The position numbers and the translations under genes are program-made. Below, in pieces: positions 1 to 33,292 of a stretch of DNA of 64,000 nucleotides. How positions within the stretch are numbered: the stretch's first letter is position 1; each line of letters begins with the position of its first letter. The notes below the pieces were generated by a model, which was not told where the DNA came from, searched no databases, and saw nothing but the letters and a program-made list of their open reading frames with translations. Source of the DNA: an uncultured Gammaproteobacteria bacterium (GTDB taxonomy: Bacteria > Pseudomonadota > Gammaproteobacteria > UBA9214); NCBI GenBank assembly GCA_963773065.1, contig CAVYZN010000009.1, positions 179,578 to 243,577 on the forward strand, in the 5' to 3' direction.

Positions 1-80
1 CTCATGCCCGAGCGGGTTTTCTCACTTCTCACTTTTTACTTGTTACTTTTTTCTGTGGGTTCAGTGGATTCCGTGGCCAT
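1..80. repeat. Right half of the composite intergenic repeat cassette (CTCACTT heptamers plus TTCCGTGG triple motif), cut by the window edge
   Basis: catgcccgagcgggttttctcacttctcac...gtggattccgtggccat matches the right ends of the copies at 4300-4397 and 6815-6901. Confidence 0.8.
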
Positions 81-147
81 AATCCGTGACCATAAAAAGT
101 GGGGACACCTTTTACCTTTCCTATAGTGAAAGAGTAGACTAGCCGCC

Positions 148-2517: not shown

Positions 2518-4083
2518 ATGAACAAAATACAAAGAGCGCTGATCAGCGTATCCGACAAGACCGGTATTGCCGAATTCGCGCGGGGGTTGAGCGCGTTGGG
2601 CATCGAGATCCTGTCCACCGGCGGGACCGCGCGCCTGCTCGCGGAAGCCGGCGTTCCCGTGGTCGAGGTGTCCGACTACACCGGGTTTCCGGAGATGATG
2701 GACGGGCGCGTCAAGACCCTGCATCCGAAGGTGCATGGCGGCATCCTCGCCCGGCGTGGCATCGACGAGGCGGTCATGGCGGAAAACGGGATCGCGCCCA
2801 TCGACCTGGTCGTGGTCAATCTCTATCCGTTTGAACGGACCGTGGCGCGCGCGGACTGCGACCTGGCGACGGCGATCGAGACGATCGATATCGGCGGGCC
2901 CACCCTGCTGCGCGCCGCGGCCAAGAACCACGCGGCCGTCACCGTGATCGTCGACGGCGCCGATTACGCGCCGGTGCTCTCGGAACTGCGGCAGCATGGC
3001 GCCATCGCGGATGCCACCCGCTACGCGCTGGCGGTCAAGACCTTCGAACACACGGCCCGTTATGACGGGGCCATCGCGAATTACCTGGGCGGCATCACCC
3101 CCGATGGTGAGCGTGAGCTGTTTCCGCGCACCATCAATTTCCAGTTTCGCCGGGTGCAGGCGATGCGCTACGGGGAAAATCCGCATCAGCGCGCCGCCTT
3201 TTATGTCGAGCATGAGCCCACCGCGGCCTCGGTTGCGACCGCGCGGCAGTTGCAGGGCAAGGAACTGTCCTATAACAATGTGGCGGACACCGATGCGGCG
3301 CTGGAGTGCGTGAAGTCTTTCACCGAGGGGCCGGCCTGCGTGATCGTGAAGCACGCCAACCCCTGCGGCGTGGCGCTCGGCGCCACCCTGCATGAAGCCT
3401 ATGAGCGTGCCTTCAGGACGGATCCTACCTCGGCGTTTGGCGGCATCATCGCCTTCAACCGGCCGCTGGATGCGGGCACGGCCCAAGCCATCATCGAGCG
3501 CCAGTTCGTCGAGGTCATCATCGCCCCGGCGGTCGAGGCGGCGGCACTGCCGGTACTGGCCGCCAAGAAGAATGTGCGCGTGCTGGAATGCGGCGCCTTT
3601 GGTGACGAGCCGGCTGCGGGGCTGGATTTCAAGCGCGTCAACGGCGGCCTGCTGGTGCAGGACCGCGATCTCGGCCGGGTGAGTGAACGCGATCTCAAGG
3701 TCGTGACCCGGCGCGCACCCACGCCGGCGGAAACGCAGGACCTGCTGTTTGCCTGGCGGGTCGGCAAATTCGTCAAATCCAATGCCATCGTCTACTGCAA
3801 GGACGGCATGACCATCGGCGTCGGCGCCGGCCAGATGAGCCGGGTCTACAGCGCCAGGATTGCCGCGCTCAAGGCGGCGGATGAAGGCTTGGAAGTGCGC
3901 GGGTCGGTGATGGCCTCGGATGCCTTCTTCCCGTTCCGCGACGGCATCGACCAGGCGGCCGCGGCCGGCATCGTCGCCGTCATCCAGCCGGGTGGCTCCA
4001 TGCGCGATGACGAGGTCATCGCCGCCGCCGACGAACACGGCATGGCGATGGTGTTCACCGGCATGCGCCATTTCCGGCATTAA
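2518..4083 (+). CDS. purH: Bifunctional AICAR transformylase / IMP cyclohydrolase
   Basis: [28 protein letters not shown] and C-terminal GMRHFRH. Confidence 0.98.
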
Positions 4084-4088
4084 AGAAA

Positions 4089-4397
4089 AAGTGGGAATGA
4101 GAAGTAGACGGAAGTACAAGTGAGAAGTAAGAAGTGAGAAGTGAGAAGAAAAACCCTGATAGCCACAGAATCCACCGAAGAACACGGAAAGTAAAAAGTG
4201 AGAACTGAAAGGTGAAAAGTGAAAATTTCCGCTCGTGCGTCGTGCGTACCAGAGATACTGCATTTCAATCCTCTGCAATCGCCACTGAAGTTCCTCGCTA
4301 TCCATGCACCAGCGCCCAACGGTCTTTCTCACCTCTTCTCACTTCTTACTTTTCACTTAATCATTTTTCCATGTTCTTCCGTGGATTCCGTGGCTAT
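4089..4397. repeat. Composite palindromic intergenic cassette: outer AAGTGAG array plus an element with long inverted ends (4159-4397)
   Basis: atagccacagaatccaccgaagaacacggaaa followed by heptamers, mirrored by ctcactt heptamers and tttccatgttcttccgtggattccgtggctat. Confidence 0.85.
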
Positions 4398-4408
4398 AAG
4401 ATAGAGCG

Positions 4409-5695
4409 ATGAACATTCTGATTATCGGCGGCGGCGGCCGTGAACATGCCCTGGCGTGGAAGGTGGCGCAGTCTCCGCAGGCGGAGACGGTGTTCGTGGC
4501 GCCGGGAAATGCCGGAACCGCCCACGAATCCGGTGTCCGGAATATCGCGATTGAGGCCAATGACATCGATGCGCTGGTGGCCTTTGCCAGGGAACACACG
4601 GTCGGGTTGACCATCGTCGGGCCCGAGATCCCGCTGGTCGCCGGAGTGGTGGATCGTTTCAACGCGGCGGGCCTGCGCTGCTTCGGGCCGACAAAGGCCG
4701 CCGCGCAACTGGAAGGTTCCAAGACCTTCAGCAAGGATTTCCTCGCGCGTCACGGTATCCCTACCGCGCGCTATGCGGCGTTCACCAGCGTACCCGAGGC
4801 GCTCGACTATATCCATGAATGCGGCGCGCCCATCGTGGTCAAGGCCGACGGCCTGGCGGCCGGGAAGGGGGTGATCCTGGCGCGGACCGAGGCGGAAGCC
4901 ATCGCGGCGGTTAATGATATGTTGAGCGGCAACGTGTTCGGGAAAGCCGGTCACCGGGTCGTCATCGAGGAGTTCCTGGAAGGGGAAGAAGCCAGTTTCA
5001 TCGTCATGGTGGATGGCGCGCAGGCGCTGCCGCTCGCGACCTCGCAGGATCACAAGGCGCGCGATGACGGCGATACCGGGCCCAATACCGGCGGCATGGG
5101 CGCCTATTCACCGGCGCCGGTGGTCACCTCCGAGATACATCGGCGCGTCATGAACGAGGTGATCCGCCCGACGGTGCGCGGCATGGCCGAGGAAGGCCAT
5201 GCCTACACCGGGTTCCTCTATGCCGGGTTGATGATCGCCGCGGACGGCACCCCGAAGGTGCTTGAATTCAATGTGCGCTTTGGCGACCCGGAAACCCAGC
5301 CGATCATGCTGCGCCTCAAGTCCGACCTGGTGGGGCTGTGCCTGGCGGCGCTTGCAGGCAGGCTCGATGACGTGGACGCAGTATGGGATGAGCGCGCCGC
5401 GCTCGGGGTGGTGCTGGCCGCCGGCGGCTACCCGGGTGATTACCGCAAGGGCGATGTCATCGAAGGGATACATGCGGCTGACGACGAGAACTGCAAGGTC
5501 TTTCATGCCGGCACGCAGGAAAAGGACGGGCGTGTCGTGACCGCCGGCGGACGCGTGCTGTGTGTCTGCGCGCTGGGCGTAACGGTCGCCGAGGCGCGGC
5601 AAAAAGCCTACCGGTGCATCGACAGGATCAAATGGCCGGACATGTATTACCGCACGGACATCGGTTACCGGGCGATAGCGCGTGAGAAAAAGTGA
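4409..5695 (+). CDS. purD: Phosphoribosylamine-glycine ligase
   Basis: GGGGREHALAW, KADGLAAGKGV, NTGGMGAYSP and RFGDPETQ motifs. Confidence 0.98.
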   Translation: MNILIIGGGGREHALAWKVAQSPQAETVFVAPGNAGTAHESGVRNIAIEANDIDALVAFAREHTVGLTIVGPEIPLVAGVVDRFNAAGLRCFGPTKAAAQLEGSKTFSKDFLARHGIPTARYAAFTSVPEALDYIHECGAPIVVKADGLAAGKGVILARTEAEAIAAVNDMLSGNVFGKAGHRVVIEEFLEGEEASFIVMVDGAQALPLATSQDHKARDDGDTGPNTGGMGAYSPAPVVTSEIHRRVMNEVIRPTVRGMAEEGHAYTGFLYAGLMIAADGTPKVLEFNVRFGDPETQPIMLRLKSDLVGLCLAALAGRLDDVDAVWDERAALGVVLAAGGYPGDYRKGDVIEGIHAADDENCKVFHAGTQEKDGRVVTAGGRVLCVCALGVTVAEARQKAYRCIDRIKWPDMYYRTDIGYRAIAREKK

Positions 5696-6021
5696 GAAGT
5701 GAGAAGTGAGAAGTGAGAAGAGAACCCTGATGGCCACAGGTGCTCCCGGCTTCCTCGGCAATTGCTCCTGCATTGCCTACTCCGCACCCTGCAGACGTGC
5801 CCCACGCGACATTGTTCACCCTGAACATCGGCACACGGAAATCCGGAAGGAATTCAAATCTCCACGCAGGATACACATGGCGCACCCTGCGAGTTATGCG
5901 TGATGTACTTTGTAAACTGCTGTGGATCCTTGACTATTACTGTCTATCCATGCACGCGGCCAAGTGGTTTTTTCACTTCTCACTTCTCACTTTTTACTTT
6001 CCGGTGTTCTTCCGTGGCCAT
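5690..6021. repeat. Composite intergenic cassette with a nested hairpin insertion
   Basis: (AAGTGAG)4 overlapping the purD stop; atggccac...gcacacggaa interrupted by about 90 bp; right end ctcacttctcac...ttccgtggccat. Confidence 0.8.
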
Positions 6022-6048
6022 AACCCGGTGCTATAAAGGAGAGCAAGA

Positions 6049-6606
6049 ATGGAAATATTCGGATGGGTGTTGGTGGCGATCATCATAGGAGTCCCCCTGC
6101 TGGGGATCGTGTTCTACAATCGCCTGGTCGGCCTCAATAACCAGGTTAAGAATGCCTGGCGGCAGATCGATGTGCAACTCAAGCGCCGTCACGACCTGAT
6201 TCCCAATCTGGTCGAGGTCGTCAAGGACTACATGTCCTACGAGCAGGAGACGCTGCAGAAAGTGATCCAGGCGCGCAACCAGGCCGTCGGTGCGCACAGC
6301 CCGGAAGAGGCGATAGCCGCCGAGGGGGTGCTGGGCGGCGCGCTGGGCAAGCTGTTTGCCCTGATGGAAAACTACCCGGATCTCAAGGCCAACGAGAATG
6401 TCGCGCGCCTGATGGAGGAACTGAGCGCGACCGAGAACAAGATTTCCTTCTCGCGCCAGTTTTACAACGACAGCGTCATGGCGCTCAACAATGGCGTGCA
6501 GTCCTTTCCATCCAATTTCGTGGCCGGCCTGTTCGGCTTCCGTGAGGCGACCTATTTCGAGACGCCGGAGGCGGAAACCGCGACGCCCAGGGTCGATCTG
6601 CGCTGA
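6049..6606 (+). CDS. lemA: LemA family protein
   Basis: N-terminal TM helix, AWRQIDVQLKRRHDLIPNLVE, ENYPDLKAN, RQFYN; AAGGAG RBS. Confidence 0.93.
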   Translation: MEIFGWVLVAIIIGVPLLGIVFYNRLVGLNNQVKNAWRQIDVQLKRRHDLIPNLVEVVKDYMSYEQETLQKVIQARNQAVGAHSPEEAIAAEGVLGGALGKLFALMENYPDLKANENVARLMEELSATENKISFSRQFYNDSVMALNNGVQSFPSNFVAGLFGFREATYFETPEAETATPRVDLR

Positions 6607-6614
6607 CAAGGCAG

Positions 6615-6901
6615 GTGAAAAGTGAAAAGTAAAAAACGTGAGAAGTGAGAAGTGAGAAGTGAGAAGTGAGAATCGTGAATAGCCACGGAATCACACGGAA
6701 AACACGGACGGAGTTCATAAAAATCACACGCAGGATGCGCTCGGTGCACACTGCGAGTGACGTATAATGTTCTTCCCTGAGCTATCAGTGGACCCCGTGG
6801 TCATCACCGCCTATCCATGCCCCAGCGCCCGAGCGGATTTTTTCACTTCTCACTTCTTACTTCATTACTTTTCGGTGTTCTTCCGTGGATTTCGTGGCCA
6901 T
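6615..6901. repeat. Composite intergenic cassette
   Basis: AAGTGAG array at 6615-6672; atagccacggaatcacacggaaaacacgga at 6679; inverted end ttccgtggatttcgtggccat at 6901. Confidence 0.85.
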
Positions 6902-6957
6902 CAGAATTCAATGTTTCACTTTGCACCTTTAACGTCTCGAGTTTTCAAAGCCATTTG

Positions 6958-8055
6958 ATGGAATCCTCACCCACCAAACCATGCCCGGAGTGCGGTACCG
7001 CCAACCGCCCGCACGCCAGGACCTGTCGGCAGTGCGGTGCGCCGCTGATCAGTGACTGGCAGGAAAAACCCCTGCTGCGCAACAAGGTCCTGCGACGGAC
7101 CGACTTCATGGCGGCGGCGCGCGCCAATCAGCGGGCGACGCGGCGACTGGTGCTGGTGCTGCTGCTGGTCCTGGTCGTGCTGGGCTACCTGCTGGGCTGG
7201 AGTCTGCAGGCCATGACGGGAAATATCCCGGTGGAAAACGAAACCATCTGGTTTGCCAGCCGATGGGGAGGATGGACGGCTCTTGTCCTGTGTTTCATCG
7301 GCGCCGTCTGGTCATGGATCTCTTTTCGCGCCGGAGACCGGATCATTCTGCGCATGACCGGGGCCGATCCTGTCAGCGTTGATGAGGAACCGCAACTGCA
7401 CAACGTGGTCGAGGAAATGGCCATAGCGGCCGGCATACGCAAACCGCGCGTCTGCGTGATCGAGACGGATGCGCTCAATGCCTTCGCCACCGGCATGCAC
7501 CCCGCGCGCGCCTCGATCGGGGTGACGCGCGGCTTGTTGGATGCGCTCAATCGTGAGGAACTGCAGGGCGTCATCGGGCACGAGATGGGGCATATCGTGA
7601 ACTGGGATATTCGTTATGCCACCGCGGTCGGTGTCATAGTCGGGCTGATTGCGCTGGTCTGTGACGGCGCGCTGCGCTCACTGCGTTTCTCCGGCCGTTC
7701 GCGGCAATCAGGCGGCCGCGCGGGCGGCGGCGCGGTCGTGATTGTGCTGTTTCTACTGGTCTTTGCCGCACTCGCGCCGTTGTTTTCCCGTCTGGTGCAA
7801 ATGGCGGTGTCGCGGCAGCGGGAGTTTCTCGCCGACGCCACCAGCGTGCGCCTGACGCGCCACCCGGAAGGTCTGATTTCCGCGCTGGAAAAACTCGAGC
7901 TCAGCGCAAAACCCTTCACGGGCGCCAACCGCGCGACACAGCACATGTTCATCGTGAATCCATTCAGGAATTTCTCCGAACAGGCCAGCAGCTTGATGGC
8001 TACCCATCCGCCGCTTGAGCTGCGCATACGGCGGCTGCGGAACTTGGGAGAGTAG
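6958..8055 (+). CDS. M48 family zinc metalloprotease (HtpX-like) with N-terminal zinc ribbon
   Basis: CPEC...CRQC, NAFATG, HEMGH, SRQREFLADA and ATHPPLELRI; start at ATG 6958 (upstream ORF extension is repeat DNA). Confidence 0.9.
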   Translation: MESSPTKPCPECGTANRPHARTCRQCGAPLISDWQEKPLLRNKVLRRTDFMAAARANQRATRRLVLVLLLVLVVLGYLLGWSLQAMTGNIPVENETIWFASRWGGWTALVLCFIGAVWSWISFRAGDRIILRMTGADPVSVDEEPQLHNVVEEMAIAAGIRKPRVCVIETDALNAFATGMHPARASIGVTRGLLDALNREELQGVIGHEMGHIVNWDIRYATAVGVIVGLIALVCDGALRSLRFSGRSRQSGGRAGGGAVVIVLFLLVFAALAPLFSRLVQMAVSRQREFLADATSVRLTRHPEGLISALEKLELSAKPFTGANRATQHMFIVNPFRNFSEQASSLMATHPPLELRIRRLRNLGE

Positions 8056-8056
8056 G

Positions 8057-8391
8057 AAGTGAAAGTGAAAAGTGAGAAGTGAGAAGTAAGAAGTAAGAAG
8101 TGAGAAGTGAAACGTGATATGTGAAGGGTTAAAAAGATCGTAATGGCCACGGGTCGCTTCCGGCTTCCAGCCTCACGCGACACTCGTACATCCCTGTACA
8201 TCGAAGCACACGGAGGAAGTAACTAGAAATCGTTAAACGCTGATCTTGGTGGAGTCGGTGCGCACGGCGCACCCTACAAAAGCCGGGCCTGAATGATCTG
8301 GGGTGATTGAACTGTTTCCGTTTGCTCCAGTGGCTATTATTTTCTCACTTCTCACTTCTCTACTTCTCACTTCTTACTTCTTACTTCTCAC
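8057..8391. repeat. Composite intergenic cassette between convergent genes, with heptamer arrays on both sides and a REP at 8257-8277
   Basis: AAGTGAG/AAGTAAG array at 8057-8110, inverted array at 8341-8391, inner atggccac...gtggctat (8143-8337), GGTGCGCACGGCGCACCCTAC. Confidence 0.85.
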
Positions 8392-9653
8392 TATCCCTGC
8401 CGTTTCATCGATTCGAAGAACTGGGCATTGCTCTTGGTGGCCTTCAGCTTGTCGAGCATGAATTCCATGGCGGCCAGTTCGTCCATGGGGTGCAGAAGCT
8501 TGCGCAGGATCCACATCTTCTGCAGTTCGGCCGGGTCGGTCAGCAGTTCCTCGCGGCGGGTGCCGGAGCGGTTGATGTTGATCGACGGGTAGACGCGTTT
8601 CTCGGAGATCTTGCGGTCAAGATGGATCTCCTGGTTGCCGGTGCCCTTGAATTCCTCGTAGATGACATCGTCCATGCGAGAGCCGGTGTCGATGAGGGCG
8701 GTGGCGAGTATGGTCAGGCTGCCGCCTTCCTCGATGTTGCGGGCCGCGCCGAAGAAACGTTTGGGACGCTGCAGGGCGTTGGCATCCACGCCACCGGTGA
8801 GTACCTTGCCGGAGGAGGGCACCACCGTATTGTAGGCGCGCGCGAGGCGGGTGATGGAATCGAGCAGGATGACCACGTCGCGCTTGTGCTCAACCAGGCG
8901 ACGCGCCTTTTCGATGACCATCTCGGCAACCTGCACATGGCGGCTGGCCGGTTCGTCGAAGGTGCTGGAGACGACCTCGCCCTGGACCGATCGCACCATC
9001 TCGGTGACTTCCTCGGGGCGTTCATCGATGAGCAGGACAATCAGGTAGCACTCCGGGTGGTTGGAGGTGATCGACTGCGCCACGTTCTGCAGCAGCATGG
9101 TCTTGCCGGCCTTGGGCGGTGATACGATCAGGCCGCGCTGACCCTTGCCGAGCGGCGCCACCATGTCGATGACGCGCGCCGTGATGTCTTCGGTGCTGCC
9201 ATTGCCGCGTTCCAGGGTCATCCGTTCATTGGGGTGGAGCGGCGTCAGGTTTTCAAAGGCGACCTTGTTCTTCGCATTTTCCGGTTTTTCGTAGTTGATT
9301 TCACTCACCTTGAGCAGAGCGAAGTAGCGTTCGCTGTCCTTGGGCGGGCGGATCTTGCCATCCACGGTGTCCCCGGTGCGCAGGCTGAAGCGGCGTATCT
9401 GGCTGGGTGAAACATAAATGTCATCCGGGCCGGCGAGATAGGAACTGTCCGCCGAACGCAGGAAGCCAAATCCGTCCTGGAGTATTTCCAGCACCCCGTT
9501 GCCGAAGATGTCCTCGCCCTTTTTGGCGTGGGATTTGAGTATGGCGAAAATGATGTCTTGCTTGCGGGACCGCGCCATTCCCTCGATACCCATTTCCTGG
9601 GCTATGGTGATGAGTTCGCTGGCGGGTTTCAGCTTGAGTTCGGAGAGATTCAT
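8391..9653 (-). CDS. rho: Transcription termination factor Rho
   Basis: [33 protein letters not shown]; 420 aa. Confidence 0.99.
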
Positions 9654-29264: not shown

Positions 29265-29309
29265 TGGTGCGCTCATGCAATGATTCCCGTGTGCTGGATT
29301 CCTCAGTAG

Positions 29310-29554
29310 ATCGCCACGGAAACCACGGAAGAACACGGAAAAATGACAAAGTAATAAGTAATAAGTGAGAAGTTAGAAGTGATAAACCCGCTCAGGCGCT
29401 GGTGCATGTCTGGATAGTAGCACCTTGAAGGGCATAAACGGCCTTAGCCTGGATTGCGAGGTATTGAAATGCAATATTCATTCGCGAACGAATTCGCGCC
29501 TACAGGTGTTCTAAATCAATAAATTTCTCTGCGTCCTTTGCGTCTCTGCGGTGA
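29310..29554. repeat. Inverted copy of the composite cassette, plus a REP (29480-29503) and a CTCTGCG triple motif (29527-29554)
   Basis: atcgccacggaaaccacggaagaacacggaaa with heptamers; the core is the reverse complement of 4255-4397 (ctatcc..catgcaccagcgcc; tgcatttcaat..gcaatc). Confidence 0.8.
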
Positions 29555-32860: not shown

Positions 32861-32974
32861 TCCATTCTCCCGGTACGCGACACACACCCGTGCCGCCGGC
32901 TTGTGTTGCAAAGGGAGAATGACAGTGAGCAAGGGGTCGCGCTGTCAGTATTGCCCTCCGCAATACACCTGCAA

Positions 32975-33172
32975 GGCATCAGGCCGGTCTCCGGGCTTGC
33001 GAGCGGGTCGATAAACCCGGGTGAATCACCTTCCCGCGCCGTGCGCAGTGGTGTGTTGATTCACCTTGTCTCGCTTACCGTTGCGGGGGCAGCGCCGGCT
33101 TAGTCAGAACTGGCTGACGCACCGGCTTCCCGTTTCATCCCTCGGACGAATGTCCTCGGGACACCTGAAGCT
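32975..33172 (-). ncRNA. Cobalamin (B12) riboswitch
   Basis: Minus strand reads caggtg...aaacgggaagccggtg...gccggcgctgcccccgcaacggtaa...cactg...gggaagg...aagcccggagaccggcctga, including the B12 box. Confidence 0.93.
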
Positions 33173-33292
33173 AAGTGGCAGTGACTTTAATGTCAGTCCT
33201 GCGGGGTGTCAAGGCGGAAGCGGTTCCGGTCATTCGCCGCACCCGCGCGGCCCTTCAACAAATATACGCACGACTATCCCCCAGGCTAATGT

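Follow-up and report, generated by a model that had tools for sequence, protein, structure and literature searches.

The stretch of DNA that we analysed (the window, 64,000 nt in length; G000:C9:179578-243577) comes from a draft genome (G000) of 3.84 Mb with a G+C content of 60%, a completeness of 91% and a contamination of about 6% (6.3%). The genes around the elements described here are, in order, a gene with an MJ0042-type zinc finger, dusB, fis, purH, purD, a LemA-like gene and htpX, followed by rho, which is convergent to htpX. The names purH, purD, htpX and rho given in the original prediction were confirmed; the name lemA, also used below, corresponds to a below-cut-off match to the MamQ model only. 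Four consecutive gaps are filled by the elements, i.e. those between purH and purD (325 bp), purD and lemA (353 bp), lemA and htpX (351 bp, measured to the conserved htpX start at 6958) and htpX and rho (335 bp), and no gene is broken by them, as predicted. The longest htpX ORF opens at 6817, within the element of its upstream gap (E21 below), and the relatives align from the ATG at 6958, from where an N-terminal extension of zinc-ribbon-like type (CxxC..CxxC) precedes the HtpX domain.

Rfam searches of the window at the gathering threshold returned rRNA, tRNA and a cobalamin riboswitch (32965-33183, minus strand, 109.7 bits) only, with no match at the elements. The rRNA operon, which includes two tRNAs, begins at 59506, and the part of its 23S rRNA that falls within the window matches model positions 1-2447 over 2408 nt, without an insert. 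The fis-purH gap (2341-2500) contains other palindromic repeats, namely a long inverted pair based on GTAGGGTGGGTTAG...CTAACCCACCCTAC and a REP-like hairpin of the TGTAGGAGCGGGCTTGCCCGCGA type; tandemly multiplied GTAGGGTGCG...GCACCCTAC units that are similar to these repeats were found in the purH-purD gap of another genome (G017, locus L011).

In the following, the letters A and a denote (AAGTGAG)n and (CTCACTT)n, respectively; B denotes ATGGCCAC together with the roughly three CACGGAA units that come after it at a spacing of 9-10 nt, b the complement of B, x the spacer between A and B, and x^ a module of about 30 nt (CTATCCATGC..GCGCCC..CGG..TTTT). The architecture was predicted to recur at six places and its described parts were indeed present at all of them; AAGTGAGAAGTGAG with at most one mismatch occurs 24 times in the window, always at these six places, against 0.01 expected (100 shuffles). 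The focal copy (E19, 4084-4400, plus strand; MFE -94.3, z -5.1) fills the purH-purD gap and starts directly after the purH stop codon (4081-4083). On the same strand it consists of degenerate units (4084-4117), a left heptamer array of four AAGTGAG/AAGTAAG units (4118-4145), spacer x (4146-4158), an internal B arm (ATAGCCAC.., 4159-4189) with three CACGGAA-like units, a second, weak A array (4190-4227) followed by the core, the x^ module (CTATCCATGC..GCGCCC..CGG..TTT, 4298-4327), which is conserved among the copies, a right heptamer array of the CTCACTT type (4328-4358) that pairs with the left array, and a terminal b arm (TTCCGTG..TTCCGTGGCTAT, 4366-4397) of TTCC(A/G)TG units ending in GTGGCTAT.

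The purD-lemA gap is filled by E20 (5688-6024, plus strand, z -7.9), with an A array at 5690-5717, an a array at about 5970-6000 and a b arm at about 5999-6021; the purD stop codon TGA (5693-5695) falls within its first heptamer. In the lemA-htpX gap lies E21 (6610-6903, plus strand, z -5.2), with an A array (about 6615-6672), a B arm (about 6680-6715), x^ (6811-6842), an a array (6843-6873) and a b arm (6876-6901). Between the convergent genes htpX and rho we found E22 (8056-8392, plus strand, z -7.7), with both stop codons abutting the arrays. E22 departs from the general description in that it has only A...a arms (8056-8125 and 8342-8392), a different core that starts with a ATGGCCACGGG module, no CTATCCATGC module and no TTCCGTGGCCAT end. 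Two further copies turned out to be larger than predicted. The one placed at 1-80 is the right part (1-83, plus strand; x^ module, CTCACTT array and TTCCGTG..GTGGCCAT arm) of a full element, E18 (G000:C9:179435-179660), that is cut by the window start, and the inverted one placed at 29310-29480 occupies 29306-29545 on the minus strand, with a B arm (29311-29341), a heptamer array (29349-29385), an x^-type module up to 29416, a core and an arm of a third type (CGCAAAG/CTTTGCG, 29519-29545) that forms its end (CTTTGCG..GCGGTGA).

The order in the window copies is A-x-B-core-x^-a-b, in which A and a form one pair, extended by x/x^, and the terminal b is the partner of the internal B, which comes after x in each A-x-B copy. 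Because of this interleaved order the window ends are not complementary to each other, and the earlier description of the two ends as reverse complements was imprecise. In E1 (G000:C5) and in the purH-purD gap of a congener (L001) the order is B-A-x-B-core-x^-a-b, from which the window order could derive if the outer-left B were lost; the order in E2 and E9, B-A-core-a-b, is that of a plain nested palindrome. Long hairpins were predicted for 16 of 16 elements, on both strands (z -3.8 to -14 relative to 40 dinucleotide shuffles), so that the folding anticipated for each copy was found for all tested copies, with A and a forming the long stem of the minimum-energy structure. The composite copies have diverged (58% mean column identity). 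A scan with a profile of the right-end module (nhmmer), as had been proposed, yielded six full copies in the 3.84-Mb genome, five of which were already described and one of which lies at G000:C6:31213-31302. The focal copy had no match in the plasmid collection, and in viral contigs the commonest 18-nt variant of the B arm occurred in only four stretches.

Using a regular expression we identified 28 heptamer-array clusters on nine contigs of the genome. Both arrays are present in 18 of them, and in all 18 the order is A (AAGTGAG) then a (CTCACTT). The arrays have 2 to 24 units, often unequal between the two arms (e.g. 20 versus 4 and 3 versus 24). Since (AAGTGAG)n carries TGA in all three frames, the constant A...a order means that stop codons face translation entering from either side. 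B arms also stand alone, in at least 15 simple hairpins of 60-85 bp, and a third arm type C (TCACCGCAAAG.. / ..CTTTGCGGTGA) makes up 42 hairpins in the genome, about two dozen of which are near-identical copies of 67-78 nt scattered over many contigs. In type-C hairpins of about 76 nt (e.g. C26:5986-6061 and C16:142584-142659) the bases outside the arms are conserved on both sides, and the copied unit is therefore longer than the hairpin itself. Two of the clusters, E15 (G000:C9:132557-132700; an A array plus a ATGGCCACGGGTCGCTCCCGG.. module) and E17 (G000:C9:178440-178543; an a array plus the complementary module), resemble the two halves of a single palindromic element that lie 46 kb apart, and may be the trace of an inversion or of recombination between elements.

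The original prediction linked such heptamer arrays to genes encoding four-helix-bundle proteins (TIGR02436), and this link holds both here and in two sister genomes. The only TIGR02436 protein of the genome is encoded in the core of E8 (G000:C6:32256-32784), between heptamer arms (105.9 bits versus a cut-off of 24; 114.7 bits for PF05635; closest solved structure 2gsc). The statement that no mobilising gene is present is thus correct for the window; the genome does have this one heptamer-armed gene, for which a mobilising role is conjectural. TIGR02436 genes were found in five of the 54 genomes of the family. In the sister genomes G028 and G030 the gene is bracketed by AAGTGAG-type arms, in G023 it is broken at a contig end, and in G009 it lies within the 23S rRNA, about 1.2-1.3 kb from the 5' end and between inverted CTGATAC-type heptamers, i.e. 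as a classical intervening sequence (IVS). At this last locus (L020, G009:C62:1-2474) the gene spans about 590-1060 and positions 1-2007 of the 23S model are spread over 2342 nt; the TGA-bearing array of this IVS is on the 3' side, opposite to the mRNA-borne copies. Hits to AAGTGAG triplets, counted in 61 genomes as overlapping windows and not as numbers of elements, were highest (115, 97 and 86) in the three genomes where a heptamer-armed gene is intact. Nine loci were found to encode close relatives of the E8 protein, in two gammaproteobacterial MAGs, four Mucilaginibacter and one each of Chlorobium, Carboxylicivirga and Bacteroidales, and inverted heptamer-type arrays are present at eight of the nine, the exception having a cut flank; the two MAG loci and the loci L017 and L018 may be non-independent.

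A similar association was found for the CACGGAA arms. GxxExxY matches are present in 24 of the 54 family genomes, and 30 loci were fetched, one of which was excluded for its short flank. Inverted tandem-array arms occur at 27 of the 29 analysable loci (16 of type C, six of type B (CACGGAA) and five of a CACAGAG type), and the remaining two hold a broken gene and a gene at a contig end, respectively. The link between CACGGAA-triplet arms and GxxExxY genes, also part of the original prediction, thus applies to six of the 29 loci; the GxxExxY PD-(D/E)XK nuclease genes at these loci form one clade (SH-aLRT support 99) and lie between (CACGGAAnn)3 arms that end in ATGGCCAC. On a tree of 27 proteins the arm type changes twice, which is the minimum possible, against a mean of 9.9 after shuffling (0 of 200 shuffles as low). 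As some of the rows of the tree are orthologues, this match shows joint inheritance of arms and gene as a unit, and recognition of the arms by the protein is not proved by it. The genome studied here has many B arms and no B-clade GxxExxY gene; its one intact and one broken GxxExxY gene are both C-armed and both lie between ribF and ileS. The two ribF-[GxxExxY cassette]-ileS loci (G000:C9:44774-45241 and G000:C10:14600-15130, the broken copy having a TGA stop and a shifted frame) may stem from a duplication or from a mixture of strains in the bin, the contamination of which is 6.3%. B arms were detected in 50 of the 54 family genomes (1-274 hits; reversed control 0), many of which have no detected B-clade gene. 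The median number of hits was about 50 in genomes with such a gene (n=6) versus about 30 in those without (n=48), with up to 198 where no gene was found, and a dependence of B arms on a resident gene is therefore unsupported by the counts.

After removal of the weak clusters E23 and E28, and based on crude GC3-based gene calls, 26 of 28 sites touch the 3' end of a gene, and the element usually starts between -20 and +10 nt from the stop codon. For instance, the stop codons of dsbD and purD fall inside the arrays. Twenty sites were called co-directional, six convergent and two 'divergent', at least three of these calls being wrong on manual reading (E2, E5 and E21). The next start codon is 10-64 nt away from the element and its ribosome-binding site is left free. 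The cargo genes are co-oriented with the upstream host gene at 23 of 26 callable loci (25 of 26 after hand correction of L017 and L018), a pattern consistent with reliance on read-through transcription from the host.

Across the family, the genes from the zinc-finger gene to rho keep their order, and in 15 relatives the gaps range from 34 to 944 bp (purH-purD), 23 to 527 bp (purD-lemA), 42 to 647 bp (lemA-htpX) and 65 to 804 bp (htpX-rho). What fills them varies by genus (ACGTGAG heptamers, C arms, B arms or unrelated palindromes), and in one gap of a congener a complete element sits in the loop of another. The composite right-end module is present at orthologous gaps in all three congeners that were examined. 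Together with the divergence of the copies (58% mean column identity), this points to an old, vertically inherited occupancy and not to current movement.

A second cluster (G000:C6:13.5-33.4 kb) was compared with five genomes, and filled, empty and cargo-swapped alleles were found at orthologous sites. At the E2 site, G002 and G003 are empty and have two convergent genes with overlapping stop codons, and in the filled alleles, B[A-core-a]b in G000 and B[type-C half...]b in G001, the outer B arms are common, the inner elements differ and new stop codons end both genes. No target duplication was readable at this filled/empty pair, the single pair compared, in which the genomes and flanks are about 15% diverged. 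At the E5 site, between dsbD and a gene for a sigma-54 regulator, G028 and G030 have a TIGR02436 cassette, G000 has an A(20)...a(4) element without a gene and G001 has an element of the form B...b. At the E8 site, between two co-directional minus-strand genes that were read by eye, without a family search, as gmd and fcl, G000 has the TIGR02436 gene with heptamer arms, G001 a GxxExxY gene (130 bits) with B arms and G030 a B element without a gene. At the DNA level, the E8 gene of G000 is 71-72% identical to the E5-site gene of G028 and G030. The idea of empty landing sites of a cassette system fits these alleles loosely: since the arms travel with the cargo clade, the thing that is reused is the place or a resident hairpin and not a universal attachment site. 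No remnants of cargo were found in the gene-less cores in a tblastn comparison of 28 cargo proteins with 23 gene-less elements (best E-value 0.019, on arrays).

On balance, these observations make it fairly probable that the copies in the window belong, as gene-less and layered members, to two related families of small insertion cassettes and are selfish insertions, similar to IVSs and MITEs, that reside behind stop codons. They join heptamer arms and CACGGAA arms around non-coding cores, and their arms are of the same type as the inverted arrays that bracket cargo genes in the same genome or family. The original suggestion of non-autonomous mobile or regulatory modules is borne out in so far as the copies are gene-less relatives of the TIGR02436 and GxxExxY cassettes, and not as regards a regulatory role. 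The elements would have originated as insertions, some of them into the loops of hairpins already present, and would persist as selfish or near-neutral DNA, with arrays that presumably lengthen and shorten by slippage. They would be transcribed within the host operons, where the long stem might be cut by RNase III, by analogy with rRNA intervening sequences, and the cargo proteins may recognise the repeats of their own arms and spread gene-less copies in trans; we infer both the RNase III processing and the trans-mobilisation. Some observations count against insertion. The interleaved A-x-B...a-b order does not arise by simple nesting, and the lack of a readable target duplication, the lack of cargo remnants in the cores and the abundance of B arms without a gene likewise speak against the insertion and cargo reading.

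A different role, as RNA modules selected by the host, in which the hairpins between operon genes would control how the mRNA is processed, how stable it is or whether it is partly terminated, in the way suggested for REP/BIME elements, and so tune the purH-purD-lemA-htpX and rho transcripts, seems unlikely to us. The occupancy of the four gaps in most of the 15 relatives, the high stability of the hairpins, the sparing of the downstream ribosome-binding sites and the persistence of the right-end module at orthologous gaps across the genus would all be expected of such modules, but the heptamer, arm family and core of the fillers vary by genus, and relatives with the same gene order have gaps of only 23-65 bp. 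Moreover, the identity of the window elements to those of congeners (0.51-0.74, calculated over the longer sequence) is no higher than that at four-fold degenerate sites (0.69-0.74), the arrays are wildly unequal in length (20 versus 4, 3 versus 24), the same arms bracket selfish-looking genes elsewhere, and a scan of positions 3900-8600 gave no promoter-like and four terminator-like sites, no excess over shuffled sequences. The predicted regulatory modules hence found no support in either conservation or signals. We also considered and rejected a CRISPR and a phase-variation reading, as there are no spacers and the arrays lie at the 3' ends of genes.

It is improbable that the elements are REP/BIME-type repeats (REPINs) moved by a REP-associated tyrosine transposase (RAYT) of the genome. 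REPINs are described in excerpts of PMC3116915 as non-autonomous, hairpin-forming inverted doublets, and the genome has ten Y1_Tnp (PF01797) matches, including a RAYT-like gene about 150 bp from an A-x-B left end; yet none of the ten has a pair of A, B or C arms on its two sides within 800 bp, this neighbouring gene has a different inverted repeat of its own, the arms consist of 7- or 9-10-nt units in tandem instead of a single short palindrome, and the arm type co-varies with the GxxExxY clade and not with RAYTs. The gene in question (G000:C17:85690-86560) has an inverted repeat of the GGTCAGTACCC type and adjoins an A-x-B left end that is without a matching right end; a short motif similar to this repeat also follows the b arm in the window (93-135). 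About as improbable is an explanation without any mobility, in which the arrays would be microsatellites that grew where they stand in AT-rich spacers, and template switching at each site would have produced the inverted pairs as local palindromes. Array copy numbers of 2 to 24 that differ between arms are in line with slippage, the window copies are old and orthologous within the genus, and no target duplication was readable at the one filled/empty pair. Against this, a non-repetitive right-end module of 100 bp and spacer x recur at unlinked sites, and the same arms surround homologous genes at different sites in different genomes, as in the case of the E8 gene and its 71-72% identical counterpart at the E5 site of G028 and G030. 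In addition, the filled and empty alleles differ by the presence of a whole element between overlapping stop codons, and about two dozen near-identical hairpins of 67-78 nt of the third arm type are dispersed over many contigs.

To our knowledge, neither of the two cargo families (TIGR02436/PF05635 and GxxExxY) is a known transposase. A more far-reaching version of the cassette reading, which we put forward only tentatively and consider rather doubtful, is that the arms are recognition arrays for their own cargo, the heptamers for the pentameric four-helix-bundle protein and the 9-10-nt repeats for the small PD-(D/E)XK nuclease. Together these would be transposase-free mobile hairpin cassettes that insert behind stop codons and into the loops of resident hairpins, swap cargo and leave gene-less, REPIN-like progeny; in this view the rRNA IVS would be one particular form of them, and their debris would make up much of the excess of intergenic heptamer repeats in bacteria.

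Four things that are usually treated separately, i.e. ORF-bearing rRNA IVSs, the uncharacterised PF05635 and GxxExxY (PF13366) families, intergenic heptamer microsatellites and MITE/REPIN-like hairpins, here seem to belong, within one bacterial family, to one kind of element. The filled, empty, gene-bearing and nested alleles at the same sites are substrates for testing cassette movement and hairpin processing in operons. Should the cargo proteins act on the arms that surround them, DNA would be moved by a new mechanism; otherwise the elements would still be a clear case of near-neutral junk that became harmless in evolution through stop codons in every frame. They also illustrate how DNA of this kind becomes established and is turned over immediately after stop codons. 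In full-text searches of the literature we found no description of tandem-array arms around TIGR02436 or GxxExxY genes outside rRNA, or of gene-less copies. PF13366 is listed as of unknown function in excerpts of PMC3424549, and PF05635 is termed uncharacterised in rRNA inserts of CPR bacteria in excerpts of PMC11270868.

Several known systems share features with the elements. In excerpts of PMC3116915, REPINs are hairpin-forming doublets of REP sequences that are linked to RAYTs. Like REPINs and BIMEs as described there, the elements are dispersed, non-autonomous, hairpin-forming inverted doublets in extragenic space, with a single-copy protein gene bracketed by the same repeats, several repeat families per genome and mosaic or nested clusters. 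Unlike in the REPIN/RAYT system of these excerpts, the genes encode four-helix-bundle and PD-(D/E)XK GxxExxY proteins instead of an HUH Y1 transposase (none of the ten PF01797 genes is flanked by the repeats, as a cognate RAYT gene would be), the arms of the window type are tandem arrays, and copy number does not clearly track the presence of the gene. Bacterial MITEs are similarly short, non-coding, intergenic and multi-copy, with terminal inverted repeats and longer gene-bearing relatives that share their ends; the elements differ in that their ends are repeat arrays of variable length. No target-site duplication was readable at the one filled/empty pair, which is about 15% diverged. The counterpart of an autonomous MITE partner would be the gene-bearing cassettes with the same arms, the proteins of which are not known transposases. 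The TAACTGA heptamer repeats of Beggiatoaceae, Cyanobacteria and Bacteroidetes (MacGregor 2015, PMC4679880) are, according to excerpts of that paper, also intergenic heptamer arrays with stops in all three forward frames that can overlap the stop codon of the upstream gene. They are direct repeats, with a single inverted set among 170, and mostly precede start codons by 1 nt, whereas the arrays described here are inverted pairs flush with stop codons that bracket a core or a gene.

The closest similarities are those with the rRNA IVSs. For the 23S IVS of Coxiella burnetii (helix 45), excerpts of PMC4990558 report a terminal stem of 28 bp, excision by RNase III, an S23p ORF and variable tandem heptamers upstream of S23p; they also cite the idea that the IVS ORF might serve mobility, and mention, by citation, ORF-bearing 23S IVSs in Leptospira, Xanthomonas and Brucella. 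rRNA IVSs have terminal inverted repeats that form a long stem, the equivalent of which are the A-a stems predicted for 16 of 16 elements, and the variable number of tandem heptamers beside the ORF in Coxiella, as given in these excerpts, is a further likeness. There are also differences: rRNA IVSs are inserted in a helix of the 23S rRNA (25 or 45) and carry a PF05635/TIGR02436 ORF, whereas the window copies lie in spacers of protein-coding operons, have no ORF and have long arrays plus a second arm type. Both features are nevertheless found among the relatives of the window copies, the rRNA location at L020 and the ORF in the sister copy at G000:C6:32256-32784. The cargo family of rRNA IVSs (S23p/PF05635/TIGR02436) also occurs in this genome, between heptamer arms of the same type as in the window, and a sister genus carries a true IVS of the helix-45 region with inverted heptamer arms.
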